Below the pieces are notes generated by a model, which saw nothing but the letters and a program-made list of their open reading frames with translations, had not been told where the DNA came from and searched no databases. The translations under genes and the position numbers were made by a program. DNA of 64,000 bases from a virus (Duplodnaviria > Caudoviricetes), in IMG/VR virus record IMGVR_UViG_2706795407_000001, positions 26,461 through 90,460 of that record, one strand, 5' to 3'. Of the stretch, positions 2,456 through 36,407 are shown piece after piece (position 1 is the stretch's first letter; every line of letters begins with the position of its first letter).

Positions 2456-3868
2456 ATGGTGGCACGACTGAATGTAGAGTTTGCGAAACGCATTCTCTCT
2501 GACCGAATCGGCAACGCCTACGTGTACGGCGGTAACTGGGACCCGTTCAATCTCAAAACGGGAACCGACTGCTCGGGGCTGGTTGTCGACATCTGTGATG
2601 CGGTGCGGAACGGCACGAGGATGGCGTGGACGCGCCACGGCATGTCCACGGAGTCGTGGCGCCCGCCGTCGATGGGCGGGCGCGCAAACCCCAACAATGG
2701 GCCGTTCGGAACAGTGATGGTGGATCATCCGTCACAATTTCCTGACGATGCTGTTGTAAAAATCGCCATCCACCACGGTCCCGGCGGCGGTAGAAACTCG
2801 CACACCTGGTGTTCCGTCGACGGGATGCGTGGCGAGTCCGCCGGATCTAAGGGCTGCGTCACGGGAAGCGCTGCGCGCGACCCCCACGACACGTCATACG
2901 CCAACAACTGGTGGTATCTGCCCGGACCCATCGTTGAGGACGGAAGCCCCATCACCGAGAACCCGAACGCGGTCACCTGGGGGATCGACATCTCCAACCA
3001 TCAAGGCGAGATGGATTTGAACCGGGTCAAAGCGGAGGGCTTCGATTTCATCTGGTGCAAGGTGTCGGAGGGCGCGAACTATCGCGACCCTTTCTGGCCG
3101 GGTAATCGGGACAAGGCTCGTGAAGCGGGCCTGATCCTCGCCGGATACCACTACGTCCGCACCGGCGACCCAGCCGCGCAGGCACGGACCTTCGTCGAGC
3201 ACCTGGGCGATAAGTCAATTCCCGCCATGCTGGATTTCGAGGACGGATCGGGAAACATCGATCAGTTCTGGGCAGTTAAGGCAGAAATCGAGAAGCTTGG
3301 CGTCAGTGTGCGCCTTTCCTACATTCCGGACTGGTATTGGGAGCGCATCGGGAAACCCGACCTCTCAAAGGTTCCGGGACTAATCTCGTCCGAGTATGTC
3401 AGCGGCACGGGCTACGCATCGGTGCTGTACCCGGGCAATTCAAGCAACTTCTGGAAGGCCTACGGCGGCCGAACCCCCGACGTCCTGCAGTTCACCGACA
3501 GGGCGTTGGTGGCAGGCAAGTCTGTTGACGCGAACGCTTTCCGGGGCACACCAGACAAGCTGCGCCAATTGTTGGGCGCGGGAGGAGATGATCCTTTGGC
3601 AAATCCCGAAATCGAACGCATGGTGCGTGAAATTCACGGCTGCCTATTTAACAAAATTCCGTCCCAGTCGAAGTACAAGACGGCGGGGGAGGGCGCTCGT
3701 TGGCAACTCCACGAACTTATCAAGAATGACGATGCGCTTCTGCATGAAATGTACGTGGAGCGCCAGGCCATGATGGGCAATCCCGAGGCTCTAGCCCTTG
3801 TCAGGCGCGAAGCTGACAGGGGCGACAAGTGGGCAAAAGTTGTCCTCGAATACATTGAGGGGGAGTAA
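2456..3868 (+). CDS. Lysin A (endolysin): N-terminal NlpC/P60-like Cys-His peptidase plus GH25 muramidase
   Basis: ATG at 2456 in frame of ORF 2240..3868; YVYGG...TDCSGLV and HTW; WGIDISNHQG, KVSEG, YHY, MLDFED GH25 motifs. Confidence 0.85.
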   Translation: MVARLNVEFAKRILSDRIGNAYVYGGNWDPFNLKTGTDCSGLVVDICDAVRNGTRMAWTRHGMSTESWRPPSMGGRANPNNGPFGTVMVDHPSQFPDDAVVKIAIHHGPGGGRNSHTWCSVDGMRGESAGSKGCVTGSAARDPHDTSYANNWWYLPGPIVEDGSPITENPNAVTWGIDISNHQGEMDLNRVKAEGFDFIWCKVSEGANYRDPFWPGNRDKAREAGLILAGYHYVRTGDPAAQARTFVEHLGDKSIPAMLDFEDGSGNIDQFWAVKAEIEKLGVSVRLSYIPDWYWERIGKPDLSKVPGLISSEYVSGTGYASVLYPGNSSNFWKAYGGRTPDVLQFTDRALVAGKSVDANAFRGTPDKLRQLLGAGGDDPLANPEIERMVREIHGCLFNKIPSQSKYKTAGEGARWQLHELIKNDDALLHEMYVERQAMMGNPEALALVRREADRGDKWAKVVLEYIEGE

Positions 3869-4248
3869 TGCCCGCTGACGTTGACGTCAAAAACCAAATC
3901 GACGGAGTCCAGGCCGATGGCACACCTAGACCTTGGGCTTGGGTGCGTGTACGCGCACGCACGGTCCTCGGAAATCTGAAAAACAAGCCTTTCGCGCGGG
4001 ACATCAACGGGAATCCCGTTGCATCCACACCATCAGCTCTAGACCACATCATCGGCGCTTCAGAGCAGACCTCGTGGCGGTATGTCGCCTCGGACGGCAC
4101 CGTTTACGATCTGAAGGATTTCGTCATCGTGGCGATCGAGAAGATGATTGCCGAGACCGATCCTGCACAACTCGCCGAATACCGTGACAGGGCGTCCCGG
4201 CTGCGCCCCTGGCCTGCGGGATACGCGGGGAAGCCCGACTTCGAGTGA
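3868..4248 (+). CDS. Hypothetical protein between lysin A and lysin B
   Basis: 126-aa ORF coupled on both sides by start/stop overlaps. Confidence 0.7.
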   Translation: MPADVDVKNQIDGVQADGTPRPWAWVRVRARTVLGNLKNKPFARDINGNPVASTPSALDHIIGASEQTSWRYVASDGTVYDLKDFVIVAIEKMIAETDPAQLAEYRDRASRLRPWPAGYAGKPDFE

Positions 4249-5856: not shown

Positions 5857-6041
5857 GCGTTTCTGATTAGTTCGCCTTACGCCAGGCTGGTGCGGTACGG
5901 CTCGTACAGGTGTCCGTGTTGCATCAGCCTCTAGTCCGGACGTACATGTCCAGCCAGTGCTCGTAGCAGACCCACCCGCAGTAGTTGCGGTAGAATCCTT
6001 TCGCGCCGCATTTGCGACACCTTTTGTCCATAGTCTCCGCC

Positions 6042-6239
6042 CTATGCTGGGTTGCCGCGACTCTCACGCTTGCAGTTGTCGCAAACGGCATAGGGCCATT
6101 CGCGCTTGACAGCGCTGAACTTGGCCTGCGCCCCGGCCAGCGAAAAACTGCCGATAGGCTTGCACTCAAGCTCCTCGCGCCACTCGATCCGTAACGGAAA
6201 ATCTGGTCCGCAGTGCTTGCACCACACGTGTTCCTCCAT
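6042..6239 (-). CDS. Small Zn-ribbon hypothetical protein
   Basis: CKHC and CDNC motifs; in leftward operon. Confidence 0.55.
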   Translation of the reverse strand: MEEHVWCKHCGPDFPLRIEWREELECKPIGSFSLAGAQAKFSAVKREWPYAVCDNCKRESRGNPA

Positions 6240-6276
6240 GCCGATAATGCCGCCGCCTTCTGTCGGGCTACAGGGC

Positions 6277-6540
6277 CTAGGCTCCCACGTGCACCAGCCA
6301 TTCGGCGTCGGTCATGTATCGCTCAGGATCGCAGGCGCACGACTGAATCCAGCCGCCGTTCCAGTCCTCGCGCTGGTCGCGCAGGACGTGCTCACCGTTC
6401 GTAAGCGTGGAAATGAATCGCCGGTAGGCGATGTCGCGCGCCGCGTATTCGGCCTCGGCTCGCGCCAACTCCTTCTTGGCTCGGTCAACGTCTCGCTGCG
6501 CGTGGCCTCTCGCCGTGCCCAACTCGCCTAGTCTGTCCAT
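6277..6540 (-). CDS. Hypothetical protein
   Basis: 87-aa ORF with RBS GAGGA on minus strand. Confidence 0.6.
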   Translation of the reverse strand: MDRLGELGTARGHAQRDVDRAKKELARAEAEYAARDIAYRRFISTLTNGEHVLRDQREDWNGGWIQSCACDPERYMTDAEWLVHVGA

Positions 6541-32807: not shown

Positions 32808-34148
32808 ATGGAGGAATACGTGGAGAAGAGTAACGGTCGTAGATATATCGGCAGTGATGTCTACACTGAGGCGCGTAAGCGTATCGCGTGGACGTTCGAC
32901 AACTTCGAGCGGGTCTACCTGTCATTCTCCGGCGGTAAGGACTCAGGTGTTCTCCTCAACCTCGCGTTGCAGCACATGGAGGAGACGGGCGAGACACGCA
33001 AGCTCGGCATCCAGATCATGGACAATGAAGCCAACTATGAGTTGTCCCTAGAGTTCATGCACCGCATGATGCGTAAGCATGCCGACAAGCTGGACATTTA
33101 TTGGTGCTGCCTGCCCATCACGCTTCCCTGCACGGTGTCCAGTTATGCGGTGGACTGGCAGTGTTGGGGGGAGCAGGATAAGGACCGCTGGATACGTCCA
33201 ATGCCTACCGATCCGTACATTGTTAACCTGGAGAACCATCCGTTCCCGTTCTTTAAAGAGAACATGCATTATGATGCGTTTTGGGATGGTTTCTCTGAGT
33301 GGTATTCGCAAGGTAAGTCGTGCGCGAACATGATCGGCATTCGCGCGTCAGAAAGCCTGAACCGTTTCCGGGCGATCATGAACGACCGGAAAGAAATGCT
33401 CGGCGGACACTACTGGACCAAACGAAACACCGAACACACTTACAATGTGTACCCAATCTACGATTGGAAAGGTGAGGATATTTGGATCGCCAACGAAAAG
33501 TTCGACTGGGACTACAACAAGCTGTACGACATCTTCTACAAGGCGGGGATTCCGCTCAGTAAGATGCGTGTGGCGTCACCGTTTATGTCCGAGTCGAAGA
33601 GTTCGCTGGGGATGTATCGGGTGATTGATCCGCACGTGTGGGCGAAGCTGTGTGCCCGCGTTGGTGGGGCGAACTTTGTCGCCCAATACGGTAAACAGTT
33701 GTCTTACCGCTCGTTCACCCTCCCGAAGGGGCACACGTGGGAGTCGTTCACGAAGTTCCTCTTGGATACCCTGCCGGAAGAGGTGGCCGCAAATTTTAGG
33801 CAGCGCTTCGACCAATCGATTGAGTTTTGGGGCTCGGTCGGGCGCGGACTCCCCGAGGACATCATTGCCGACCTGGACCGCATTGGTGTAGATTACCGGA
33901 TCAACGGCACCACACCGCACGGCGGCAATCATTTGCGTCGAGTGGTGATTGAGGTTCCGCCGGATCATTTGGATGAACTGCGAGCCCACCCCAGCATGGT
34001 TACTAGCTGGAAACGGTTTGCGATCACGATTCTGAAAAATGATCACACCTGCAAATATCTGGGTCTGCAGCCTACGCAGGAGCAGCAGGCTAGGCAGAAG
34101 CAGATTCAGGCCAAGTACAAGTCACTGAATGGGAGGGCGACTAAATGA
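32808..34148 (+). CDS. PAPS-reductase-family/DUF3440 protein (YbdN/IbrA-like)
   Basis: PP-loop SFSGGKDS, GIRASESLNR, YPIYDW, C-terminal SWKRFAITILKND. Confidence 0.85.
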   Translation: MEEYVEKSNGRRYIGSDVYTEARKRIAWTFDNFERVYLSFSGGKDSGVLLNLALQHMEETGETRKLGIQIMDNEANYELSLEFMHRMMRKHADKLDIYWCCLPITLPCTVSSYAVDWQCWGEQDKDRWIRPMPTDPYIVNLENHPFPFFKENMHYDAFWDGFSEWYSQGKSCANMIGIRASESLNRFRAIMNDRKEMLGGHYWTKRNTEHTYNVYPIYDWKGEDIWIANEKFDWDYNKLYDIFYKAGIPLSKMRVASPFMSESKSSLGMYRVIDPHVWAKLCARVGGANFVAQYGKQLSYRSFTLPKGHTWESFTKFLLDTLPEEVAANFRQRFDQSIEFWGSVGRGLPEDIIADLDRIGVDYRINGTTPHGGNHLRRVVIEVPPDHLDELRAHPSMVTSWKRFAITILKNDHTCKYLGLQPTQEQQARQKQIQAKYKSLNGRATK

Positions 34149-35044
34149 AGGTGATCAAGGGGAGTGACCTTGAGTCGATGGGTCGGGCGATGGAGTTCAC
34201 GCCAGGCGGATTCTTTAGTCACCGGTTTCTGCTGGAGGAGGATGGCCTCGGCTATACTGTGACCCGCACTACGATCCCTGAGTGTCAGCCGCAGCGCTGG
34301 CATTACCCCGACCATCTTGAGTCTTGCTACTGCGTTTCCGGTGTTGGTGAGCTGGTCGATTTGAAGACTGGTGAGAAGCATCGGATCGAACCTGACACCC
34401 TTTATGCGCTCGATAAGCATGATGAGCACACTTTTCAGGCCATCGGCGGGCCGGTAACACTCATCTGCATGTTCACCCCCGCTCTGCGGGGGAATGAGGC
34501 GCATAAGGACGGGCACGACTACCGGAGCGATCTGTCGCCCGTGTACGCGGTGCGTTCCGTTCCCATTGAGAAGGTGACGGCGAACGATTACAACCCCAAC
34601 AGTGTTGCCCCGCCCGAGATGGAACTGCTGGAAACGTCCATCTGGGAGGACGGTTACACTCAGCCGGTTGTCACGGTGTACGACGAAGAGAATGACAAGT
34701 ACATCGTGGTTGACGGTTTCCACCGTTACCTCACACTGCGGAACTCTGAACGTATCCGCGAGCGCGAGCGTGGAATGCTGCCGGTGGTGGTGCTGCGTAA
34801 AGATATGTCGGATCGCATGGCTTCGACCATCCGCCATAACCGTGCGCGCGGCTCTCACAACATTGAACTCATGTCGCAGATCGTGGCCGAACTGGTCGAA
34901 ATGGGCAAGGGCGATAGATGGATCTGCCAACATATCGGCATGTCGCCAGACGAGCTACTGAGAATGAAACAGGTCACCGGCCTCGCATCCTTGTTCGCAA
35001 ACAGGGAGTTTTCCGAGGCGTGGGAGCCGGAGAGTGACGAGTAA
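34145..35044 (+). CDS. Fusion: N-terminal ectoine-synthase (EctC)-like cupin plus C-terminal ParB/Srx domain (YbdM/IbrB-like)
   Basis: WHYPDHLESCYC and YALDKHDEH cupin motifs; ANDYNPN, DGYTQP, VDGFHR, RHNRARG ParB/Srx motifs; ATGA overlap with upstream gene. Confidence 0.85.
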   Translation: MKVIKGSDLESMGRAMEFTPGGFFSHRFLLEEDGLGYTVTRTTIPECQPQRWHYPDHLESCYCVSGVGELVDLKTGEKHRIEPDTLYALDKHDEHTFQAIGGPVTLICMFTPALRGNEAHKDGHDYRSDLSPVYAVRSVPIEKVTANDYNPNSVAPPEMELLETSIWEDGYTQPVVTVYDEENDKYIVVDGFHRYLTLRNSERIRERERGMLPVVVLRKDMSDRMASTIRHNRARGSHNIELMSQIVAELVEMGKGDRWICQHIGMSPDELLRMKQVTGLASLFANREFSEAWEPESDE

Positions 35045-35408
35045 GCAGATATACAGGATCACATATCCGAACGGGAAAATCTATGTCGGCATGGACTTGA
35101 CCGGGGACCGGTTGTACATCGGCAGCCCCAGTCTTCGGTCAGTCATTGCCGACGACCTCGGTATTGATCCGAACGTTTTCCCGAAACGTCCGTTAGCTCG
35201 TTCGACCGTTGTCGACGGGGCGGAGGATGACTACACGCTTTCGTTCCCGAATTTGGGTTTGACGTTGCGGAAGGAAATCCTTTGGGAGTCTGACGACGCG
35301 TCGGACGACGAGGTGCGATCCATGGAAATGGAGTTGATTCGCGCCACCAGGGCGTGCGACCCCGATATCGGGTATAATCGATCCCCCCGGAGGTGGATTG
35401 AAACTTAA
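35034..35408 (+). CDS. GIY-YIG-family endonuclease
   Basis: QIYRITYPNGKIYVG, conserved Glu helix, GYN. Confidence 0.7.
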   Translation: MTSKQIYRITYPNGKIYVGMDLTGDRLYIGSPSLRSVIADDLGIDPNVFPKRPLARSTVVDGAEDDYTLSFPNLGLTLRKEILWESDDASDDEVRSMEMELIRATRACDPDIGYNRSPRRWIET

Positions 35409-35796
35409 ACAAGTCTGGCATCCCGTTCATCAATGGGAAGAGGTGGCCCACAACATGTGGGGCAAGGTTGACGACAGGGCAGCCTACCTCGAAAAAGCCA
35501 TACAGTTCACGGGCAACCACGAACTGTATGGCTTTTTTATGCGCAGGGTATGCAAGGAATGGCCTATCAGCACCGAAAACGCGTTCACCGATCCCCACTT
35601 GAACCATAAGGCGTGGGTGGGCCATGCGGCGTGCGCGCTAGCCATGGGGTGTCCAGAGGATATAGTTCGTAAAGCGTGGAGTTACTTGTCGGATGAGCAA
35701 AAACTATTGGCAAATTCAGAAGCAAGCGCAGCAATATCCGACTGGCGTAGGGCCTACATCGCGAATAAAGGCCTATGTGAAGATGTGGCAGGATAG
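35398..35796 (+). CDS. Hypothetical protein of the DUF3440 module
   Basis: 132-aa Trp/His-rich ORF overlapping both neighbours. Confidence 0.7.
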   Translation: MKLKQVWHPVHQWEEVAHNMWGKVDDRAAYLEKAIQFTGNHELYGFFMRRVCKEWPISTENAFTDPHLNHKAWVGHAACALAMGCPEDIVRKAWSYLSDEQKLLANSEASAAISDWRRAYIANKGLCEDVAG

Positions 35797-35983
35797 ATGC
35801 TACGGCGACAACATCCCCGATGAGCTGCCGGATGGACTATTGTGGTCGGGTCGAGCCCCCTCGTGGAAAGCTATAGCGATTTGTCTTCTGCGGAATGATT
35901 TCAGGTTGCACAAGTTGGGGTACACGACCGAGCCTGGCGATTGGGCTCGGGCTGCCTTGGAGATGGCGAAGCGCAAGGGGTAG
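35693..35983 (+). CDS. Stand-alone homologue of the DUF3440 C-terminal region (start uncertain)
   Basis: PSWKAIAICLLRNDFRLHKLGY aligns with TSWKRFAITILKNDHTCKYLGL of 32808..34148. Confidence 0.65.
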   Translation: MSKNYWQIQKQAQQYPTGVGPTSRIKAYVKMWQDRCYGDNIPDELPDGLLWSGRAPSWKAIAICLLRNDFRLHKLGYTTEPGDWARAALEMAKRKG

Positions 35984-36099
35984 ACGGGTTGTGGGCGCAT
36001 CCGCACTTGGGGCAGGATTCGCCGAGGAGGCGACCATCTTTCAGGTACATCCATCCCAGTGTGACCATGGCTTCATCTTATCGTGCGGGTGGGCAAAAG

Positions 36100-36135
36100 A
36101 AAATCCCCCTAACCGTTTGGGGCTAGGGGGATTTT
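36100..36135. terminator. Bidirectional terminator
   Basis: AAAATCCCCCTA/TAGGGGGATTTT between convergent genes. Confidence 0.75.
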
Positions 36136-36136
36136 C

Positions 36137-36334
36137 TTATCCGATGATCTCGCCGGTAGCGGGGTGGCGGAGAGGCGGCCGGTTCTTGTATGCCTCGGTG
36201 GCGAACCATGCTTCGCGGGCTTTCTCGTAGCGGCGAACCGGGTTGCCGGTGTAACGTGCGCCGTCGCGGTAGGCGTCGAGGGCGTTGCCCGCGTTGACGT
36301 ATTCGTTGAACACGGCCTGGTCGGTGGGGTTCAT
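36137..36334 (-). CDS. Small leftward protein, paralog of 62063..62359
   Basis: AGNALDAY.DGA...AW.AT..Y.NR shared; own promoter, operator and terminator. Confidence 0.7.
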   Translation of the reverse strand: MNPTDQAVFNEYVNAGNALDAYRDGARYTGNPVRRYEKAREAWFATEAYKNRPPLRHPATGEIIG

Positions 36335-36371
36335 TGCTGCTCCGTCCTTTCTTTTTGATGAATTTTCCCTA

Positions 36372-36407
36372 GCTTAACCCTTGGTTAGGCTAGGTGTCAA
36401 CACTTTG
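36372..36407 (-). promoter_or_regulatory. SigA promoter with operator B
   Basis: TTGACA-18 bp-TAAGCT on minus strand; CTAGGTGT-CA-ACACTTTG at 36390..36407. Confidence 0.75.

Follow-up and report, generated by a model that had tools for sequence, protein, structure and literature searches.

A five-component IbrA/IbrB operon in a tailed-phage genome

We analyzed a 64,000-nucleotide stretch of a tailed-phage genome (Duplodnaviria; Caudoviricetes), referred to here as the window, which comprises bases 26461-90460 of the 90,460-bp IMG/VR virus record IMGVR_UViG_2706795407_000001; the record is rated complete by CheckV. The subject of this study is a run of five plus-strand open reading frames (ORFs) in the window, g1 to g5 (32808-35983), which overlap by 4, 11, 11, and 104 nt in turn and include an IbrA-type protein, a fusion of an EctC-family cupin to an IbrB-type ParB protein, and two small conserved partners (Table 1). 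A sequence-only reading of this DNA had described five overlapping genes ending at a bidirectional terminator, and the ORFs together with an 18-nt inverted repeat bear this out. The arms of the repeat (36097-36114 and 36121-36138) are 94% complementary and enclose a 6-nt loop, an A-run precedes the repeat and a T-run follows it, and the g5 stop codon lies 113 nt upstream; a simple terminator scan did not pick up this repeat.

Table 1. Features of the operon and of its terminator, in window coordinates.
Feature	Position	Strand	Assignment
g1	32808..34148	+	IbrA-type PP-loop ATP-pyrophosphatase-fold protein, PAPS_reduct + DUF3440, 446 aa
g2, whole	34145-35044	+	Cupin::ParB fusion, 299 aa
g2, N-terminal domain	34145..34531	+	Predicted EctC-family Fe-cupin, residues 1-129
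g2, C-terminal part	34532..35044	+	IbrB-type ParB/Srx (DGFHR, RHNRARG) + HTH-like tail
g3	35034..35408	+	Stand-alone GIY-YIG-fold protein, 124 aa, insertion outside the conserved module
g4	35398..35796	+	All-alpha conserved partner, 132 aa, TTG start
g5	35693..35983	+	Small paralogue of the IbrA C-terminal (DUF3440-C) motif, 96 aa
Bidirectional intrinsic terminator	36097..36138	.	Closes the operon and the convergent ORF 36137-36334

The same pairing of a PAPS_reduct + DUF3440 protein with a ParB/Srx + helix-turn-helix (HTH) protein is found in IbrA/IbrB of the Escherichia coli ECOR-9 island, in YbdN/YbdM of E. coli K-12, and in phage PHROGs 2302/2159. The assignment of g1 and g2 to this type, proposed earlier from the sequence, stands, as the PAPS_reduct + DUF3440 protein lies beside a phrog_2159 protein. 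Compared with these known pairs, the window adds the EctC-type cupin, g4, and g5. A literature search for IbrA/IbrB, DUF3440, YbdN/YbdM, and an ectoine synthase-ParB fusion returned no biochemical study, in keeping with the earlier statement that the chemistry of the pair is undescribed.

The five components are retained together

No match to the locus came from a megablast search of 50,697 phage records. A protein search recovered the PF06339 + PF02195 architecture in at least 120 clusters, and a g4 profile scan of IMG/VR returned 191 contigs. These numbers, and the public annotation of a related locus described below, run counter to the rarity of the EctC-ParB fusion that the sequence-only reading had implied. 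For counts of gene order we kept 80 loci from the 191 g4-bearing contigs; the order g1-cupin-ParB-g4-g5 was found in all 80 wherever the flank allowed it, with the cupin fused to ParB in 64 and encoded on its own in 13. It is likewise unfused in Pseudoalteromonas phage XCL1123 and in loci L012, L013, L014, and L095, and in L012 the gene order is shuffled to g4, g5, g1, cupin, ParB. In tblastn searches over the loci fetched from assemblies, g1, the cupin, ParB, g4, and g5 always occurred together.

Unfused systems were surveyed in the best 80 IbrB-bearing loci from species-representative bacterial genomes, in 77 of which IbrB is unfused; tblastn found a stand-alone g4 or g5 in none of these 77. 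Expressed by locus type, g4 was found in 13 of 13 cupin loci and in one of 78 unfused IbrB loci; 76 of these 78 lack the cupin, g4, and g5 alike. The only locus in which we found g4 but no cupin is that of Pseudomonas phage Amjad_SA (L010, OP917824; 2474-7528), where a ParB-HTH protein, IbrB, a g4 homologue, IbrA, and an SF2 helicase follow each other, all annotated as 'hypothetical'. Homologues of g1, g2, g4, and g5 (though not of g3) are conserved in the same order across dozens of loci, which indicates that the genes are real, and the retention of the set through fusion, fission, and shuffling speaks strongly, on comparative grounds, for joint action of the five parts. From these comparisons we conclude that the locus is a distinct, computationally defined five-component subtype of IbrA/IbrB, made up of IbrA, the cupin, IbrB, g4, and g5, and that g4 and g5 are its predicted true conserved partners.

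The variant is already present in public annotation and had never been analyzed before. Phage XCL1123 (MN313256) carries the five components in the same order (identities of 67% for g1, 80% for ParB, 59% for g4, and 49% for g5), labeled in GenBank as 'PAPS reductase' and 'ectoine synthase/ParB multidomain protein'. It differs from the window in that the cupin and ParB are two coding sequences, g3 is missing, and the portal gene directly follows the module.

g1 has an intact PP-loop and only distant similarity to DndC

The g1 product matches PAPS_reduct (PF01507; 1.5e-10, 41.8 bits against a cut-off of 22.5), DUF3440 (PF11922; 6e-55, 186.3 bits against a cut-off of 25), and phrog_2302 (4e-126). 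Its PP-loop is intact, as had been noted from the sequence, with SFSGGKDSG at residues 39-47 and the core SGGKDS at 41-46. Among 91 IbrA homologues of 36-100% identity, SGGKDS, C101, and C415 (in NDHxCKYxG) are kept in at least 97%; in known IbrA/IbrB systems, too, the PP-loop and two cysteines are invariant. Since SGGKDS is both intact and nearly invariant, IbrA would be expected to use ATP. A search of the PDB with an IbrA profile gave only spurious WD40 matches and a weak match to the PP-loop of LarE. A CysH-type reductase of phosphoadenosine phosphosulfate (PAPS) or adenosine phosphosulfate, with a role in sulfur metabolism, was considered and rejected: g1 scores 20.4 against a cut-off of 154 for NF002537, and 18.8 against 254 for TIGR02057.

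The sequence-only reading had drawn an analogy to phosphorothioation by Dnd/Ssp systems, in which IbrA would be a DndC-like sulfur-inserting enzyme, with sulfur supplied by the host IscS. DndB/DndC and BrxP of BREX type 4 likewise combine a ParB-superfamily protein with a PP-loop enzyme of the PAPS-reductase fold acting on DNA, and IbrA has two invariant cysteines; the DGxHR motif of IbrB resembles that of DndB. The likeness is however confined to the level of the fold (15-22 bits): g1 reaches 14.8 bits with the DndC model TIGR03183, whose cut-off is 290.4, and 22 bits (1.7e-5) with the PADLOC DndC model. The accessory proteins also differ, with no desulfurase, DndD/E, or SspBC homologues. PADLOC, run on g1-g5, gave weak DndC/BrxP fold matches for g1, none for the other four proteins, and no further Dnd component, a scan that did not extend to Dnd genes in the rest of the genome. 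EctC, EctD, g4, and g5 would have no place in sulfur insertion. We therefore set the analogy aside as reflecting a shared fold, and regard phosphorothioation as very improbable.

The cupin domain of g2 belongs to the EctC family

Residues 1-126 of g2 match Ectoine_synth (PF06339; 1.3e-32, 113.1 bits against a cut-off of 27), and the solved EctC structure 5BXX matches the domain at 6.5e-20. E59, Y87, and H95 of g2 align to the metal ligands E57, Y85/84, and H93/92 of solved EctC (5BXX, 5ONN), the identity of the ligands being taken from PMC5924519. Relative to the solved enzymes, the pocket residues R27, T42, and Y54 are kept, and W21 and N38 are replaced by F and T, respectively. The E59/Y87/H95 triad, S25, R27, T42, Y54, C108, and F110 are invariant in 40 cupin relatives of 67-88% identity. 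Gene 2 had been read from the sequence as an EctC-like cupin that keeps the metal-ligand pattern, joined to ParB/Srx, and these alignments agree: the domain is predicted to be a genuine EctC-family cupin with an intact catalytic pocket. It has the cupin fold, the Glu/Tyr/His triad, and most pocket residues in common with EctC (5BXX, 5ONM-5ONO), but differs in its two substitutions, in its fusion to a DNA-binding domain, in having no ectAB partners, and in scoring 118.1 bits against the NCBI ectoine-synthase model NF009806, below the cut-off of 128. It belongs with the 'solitary EctC-type' proteins of PMC5924519.

The absence of ectA and ectB, noted earlier for the window, extends to the whole 90-kb phage genome, in which models for EctA and EctB (TIGR02406 and TIGR02407) and for EctD gave no match. 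Among the relatives' loci that we examined EctD does occur, but neither EctA nor EctB. The relative L176, whose g1 and ParB are 82% and 85% identical to those of the window, contains an ectoine hydroxylase gene (3097-4008) that scores 376 bits with the equivalog model TIGR02408, whose cut-off is 336.5. Its product includes FYWHSDFETWHAEDGMP, an exact match to the published 17-residue signature F-x-W-H-S-D-F-E-T-W-H-x-E-D-G-M/L-P, and we conclude from these matches that L176 has a predicted bona fide EctD inside an IbrA-cupin::ParB operon. The g2|g4 junction of L176 holds a 73-aa ORF, the EctD gene, and a g3 homologue, with C5 DNA methylase and HNH genes downstream. In L103, a PhyH-family oxygenase lies between g1 and a 499-aa cupin-insert-ParB protein. 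The presence of EctD and of a PhyH-family oxygenase in these operons makes it probable that the cupin handles an ectoine-like small molecule, and that it acts as an enzyme rather than as a sensor.

Longer cupin-ParB proteins such as that of L103 (3515-5014) and P0106 (483 aa) have about 190 additional residues inserted between cupin and ParB. The L103 insert gives weak, sub-threshold matches to S-adenosylmethionine-dependent methyltransferase folds (FtsJ, Methyltransf_31; E ~3e-3).

Viral ectoine synthase (ectC) genes have been read as osmoprotection genes (PMC12647753, PMC13079714), and by this account the cupin would be an auxiliary metabolic gene product that makes ectoine for the infected cell. 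The conserved EctC pocket and the EctD of L176 are in line with such a role, but a phage without ectA or ectB is not, nor is a cupin that is fused to a DNA-binding ParB/HTH protein in 64 of 77 IMG/VR loci and always lies inside an IbrA-g4-g5 operon. The score of g2 under the NCBI ectoine-synthase cut-off and the nature of its cellular relatives also speak against it. The close stand-alone relatives in cells include 124-aa orphan EctC-like proteins from a Streptomyces biosynthetic cluster, which argues that EctC-family cupins are used outside ectoine synthesis. In the Streptomyces loci (L092-L094), the orphan 'ectoine synthase' gene (6001-6375) is accompanied by genes for a ketosynthase, an AMP-ligase, carrier proteins, Trp-pathway-like enzymes, and an acyl-CoA dehydrogenase; no ectAB genes were found within the 6-kb flanks. 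The operon context thus puts the osmoprotection reading of viral ectC in doubt, and for this phage we hold it to be highly unlikely.

The ParB part of g2 is conserved across phyla

The C-terminal part of g2 matches PHROG 2159 'ParB-like' (phrog_2159; 8e-92), ParB_N at residues 136-200 (PF02195; 3e-4, 21.2 bits), and ParB-DNA-methyltransferase fusions (phrog_498; 8.7e-10); with the TIGR00180 parB_part model it scores 18.6 bits, below the cut-off of 58.45. It is 57-96% identical to unfused IbrB from phages and from bacteria of several phyla, with values of 57-74% for unfused IbrB of Streptococcus, Fusobacterium, and Pseudomonas phages and gut bacteria. As judged from these alignments, the conservation of the IbrB ParB domain across phyla is unusually strong. 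The domain of this phage and chromosomal copies (gut Alphaproteobacteria, Bacteroides, Alistipes, and others; L015-L091) are 59-74% identical.

A module of this kind could also be a regulator of phage or prophage expression, an 'IbrAB co-activator' in which IbrB binds DNA with the assistance of IbrA, and the cupin senses the osmotic state of the host through ectoine or its precursor. Phage homologues are annotated as 'co-activator of prophage gene expression' or as IbrA/IbrB, IbrB has an HTH-like tail, and the XCL1123 module lies directly upstream of the portal gene. Ligand-binding cupins are moreover common in regulators, and g2 has a weak AraC_binding match (E 0.04). A sensor would not need an invariant Fe triad and pocket, however, and the invariant PP-loop and the presence of a true enzyme, the predicted EctD of L176, also point away from regulation. 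The module usually lies in the replication or nin-type early region, away from the late genes, and a ParB domain 60-96% identical across phyla would be unusual for a promoter-specific regulator. We consider a regulatory role unlikely, while giving it some weight.

g4 and g5 are conserved partners, and g5 resembles the C-terminus of IbrA

The g4 family comprises 275 protein clusters and corresponds to no Pfam family; many Trp, Glu, Asn, His, and Asp residues are invariant. The AlphaFold2 (AF2) model of g4 is all-alpha, with a predicted local distance difference test (pLDDT) score of 94. In fold searches Foldseek gave only E>1 against the PDB, the best VIA-wide match had a Z of 4.1, and the ESM Atlas held no informative relative; BFVD contained a single close homologue (58% identity). 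g4 therefore has a confidently predicted fold without a match in the structure libraries searched.

The g5 family aligns to residues 382-430 of IbrA, its extreme C-terminus (hhalign 93.6%, E 2e-7), and the g5 homologue of L095 exceeds the DUF3440 cut-off; g5 has Leu where IbrA has C415 of NDHxCKYxG. The reading frame of g5 opens with a conserved MSxNYWQ that lies 104 nt within g4. A start codon at this motif is present in all 70 g5 homologues examined, so that g5 is best explained as a conserved out-of-frame overlap. A +1 frameshift producing a g4-g5 fusion was considered and rejected on this ground, and the upstream frame is closed just before the start in L003 and L007. Elsewhere, g4 and g5 form one 217-aa protein in L014 (3853-4503), a contig binned with a Gallionella metagenome-assembled genome, and in L152 (4074-5333) the g5 frame extends to 420 aa, with about 320 extra residues that have no Pfam match.

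The pentapeptide QL[SD]LF and the hexapeptide QLSLPL (Hda) are forms of the bacterial beta-clamp-binding motif. Among 66 unique g5 tails, 37 have Qxx[LMI][FLI] no more than 2 residues from the end (1.1% in shuffled tails), and about 19 further tails end in QLELPL. We found no clamp gene of the phage's own, so the target of g5 would be the host DnaN. The window g5 ends about 6-10 residues before its closest relatives, without their QPTLF/QPSLF tail (35981-36030), and the DNA alignment to L011, the closest relative of the window (g2 88% identical), suggests an insertion of about 43 nt with an in-frame TAG here. A possible out-of-frame relic of the tail, EEATIF, lies downstream.

Such tails could also serve host takeover or anti-defense without any marking of DNA, with the complex binding the host clamp or consuming a host metabolite or signal and so blocking replication or immunity. 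The early-region position of the module would suit this, as would g4, whose many invariant Trp, Glu, Asn, and His residues hint at the binding of a ligand. Set against it are the PADLOC results, limited to weak DndC/BrxP fold matches, and the lack of similarity to known anti-defense proteins. Unfused IbrAB operons are also fixed in the chromosomes of gut Alphaproteobacteria and Bacteroides, which implies that the system is not purely an anti-host weapon. Overall this seems to us quite unlikely.

g3 is an insertion with a GIY-YIG fold

DNA homology between the window and both L011 and L176 stops at 35032 and restarts at 35410, and the corresponding gap in L011 is 26 bp. g3 is thus a precise 378-bp insertion that replaced the start of g4, which now begins with TTG. 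The AF2 model of g3 (pLDDT 89) has as its best VIA-wide match the catalytic domain of I-TevI (1LN0; Z 7.9, rmsd 2.4 Å), with a superposition covering 80 of 92 residues, and three other GIY-YIG enzymes are among the top eight: 9U75 (PD-T4-3), 1YCZ (UvrC), and 2WSH (EndoII). The match came from the VIA-wide search only. Foldseek against the PDB gave no GIY-YIG match, searches of PDB sequences with the single sequence and with a profile gave nothing meaningful, g3 itself has no Pfam, PHROG, or NCBIfam match, and tblastn against phages found none. The Pfam GIY-YIG model matches 4 of 42 g3-family members, g3 not being among them. The family has about 600 representatives and keeps Y7, Y17, E98, and N115 almost without exception; at the position of R27 of I-TevI there is no conserved Arg, and the conserved R80/K81 lie elsewhere in the sequence.

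Over the loci fetched from assemblies, tblastn found g3 in the window only. g3-type genes occur in 4 of about 100 operons of the cupin-IbrAB type, at two different junctions: L176 has the best homologue (55% identity), likewise at g2|g4, and L152 and L169 have more distant ones at g1|cupin. A further family member adjoins a major facilitator superfamily transporter gene, outside such operons. This sporadic distribution and variable position favor a selfish reading, and g3 is probably a homing-type element rather than a dedicated partner. Like the free-standing homing endonucleases of the I-TevI/Seg type, it combines a GIY-YIG fold, insertion between conserved phage genes, and sporadic occurrence; it differs from them in its length of only 124 aa, without a DNA-binding domain, and in its non-conserved catalytic Arg, and any cleavage by it is putative.

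The sequence-only reading had proposed that gene 3 is a GIY-YIG nuclease acting as a modification-sensitive partner of the module. The fold assignment is upheld by the structural match, whereas the partnership fares poorly. In its favor, the repeated association with the operon leaves some room for function, and the structural neighbor 9u75 (Z 5.1) is a restriction enzyme of the GIY-YIG type specific for 5-hydroxymethylcytosine. The gene is nevertheless missing from L011 and from about 96% of operons, its position varies, its family extends beyond such operons, the canonical Arg is not conserved, and it has no DNA-binding domain. A functional, modification-aware role for g3 is, in our judgment, rather improbable.

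Genomic setting of the module

The module lies within a block of replication and nucleotide-metabolism genes, between an exonuclease and a helicase. Upstream are genes for ribonucleotide reductase (25253), thymidylate synthase (27350), a prim-pol (29702), and a PD-(D/E)XK exonuclease (31887), and downstream those for a DnaB-like helicase (36419), a DnaQ-like exonuclease subunit (40564), and a MazG-like pyrophosphohydrolase (43481). DNA methylases are close to the module in L007 and L176. The convergent minus-strand ORF 36137-36334 (65 aa), the stop of which abuts the terminator, has no PHROG match. A 12-nt inverted repeat (CCTAGCTTAACC / GGTTAGGCTAGG; 36368-36394) lies just 5' of the start of the helicase gene and might serve as an operator or as some other regulatory element.

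A proposed role in marking replicating DNA

We tentatively propose that the five-part module is a DNA-directed machine that consumes ATP and draws on an ectoine-type small molecule to place a mark, with g3 as a selfish insertion; we hold this to be quite possible, though short of probable. In this proposal IbrB would place the complex on DNA, and in most relatives the QxxLF or QLxLPL peptide at the C-terminus of g5 would anchor the complex at the beta sliding clamp of the host. IbrA, spending ATP, would activate a carboxyl or carbonyl group by adenylation, and the cupin would make, open, or cyclize an ectoine-type molecule (N-acetyl-diaminobutyrate or a tetrahydropyrimidine), which would be the group transferred or processed. 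The outcome would be a covalent mark on replicating phage DNA, of which the benefit would probably be protection from host nucleases. What IbrA acts on, which way the cupin reaction runs, the binding to the clamp, and the DNA adduct are all inferred. A DNA-directed role fits the ParB/Srx and HTH regions, the position in a replication module, the tails of g5 in relatives, and the DNA methylases nearby, and the module probably acts on replicating DNA. Of the DNA modification put forward in the sequence-only reading, the DNA-directed role and the genuine EctC pocket are retained, and the analogy to phosphorothioation and the GIY-YIG partner are given up. In its most specific form, in which the operon writes a group derived from ectoine or N-acetyl-diaminobutyrate on replicating DNA by IbrA adenylation, IbrB positioning, and coupling to the fork through g5 and the clamp, we regard the proposal as markedly improbable.

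Several observations weigh against the marking of DNA. We infer the mark, no modified base having been observed. The core IbrAB pair lacks the cupin in most lineages and works without it there, so ectoine-type chemistry cannot be the core IbrAB reaction. IbrAB reportedly activates prophage eib genes in E. coli ECOR-9, a regulatory rather than a modification phenotype and, to our knowledge, the only experimental IbrAB phenotype. The ParB_N match of g2 is below the Pfam cut-off of 26.3 bits, and the predicted clamp binding of g5 derives from a short peptide motif; the window g5 itself ends in ...AKRKG, without a C-terminal motif of the clamp-binding type.

IbrA/IbrB (YbdN/YbdM) is among the most widespread phage and bacterial gene pairs without known biochemistry. 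The subtype described here ties the pair to well-understood chemistry, that of EctC and, in a relative, EctD, and in relatives putatively to the sliding clamp. Simple help against salt stress is probably not what viral 'ectoine synthase' genes provide, and virome matches published as osmoprotection genes may in many cases represent the cupin part of such an operon. If an ectoine-derived group is indeed placed on DNA, the mark would be a DNA hypermodification of a new class, made from a compatible solute, and would give a first chemical handle on the long-unsolved IbrA/IbrB family.

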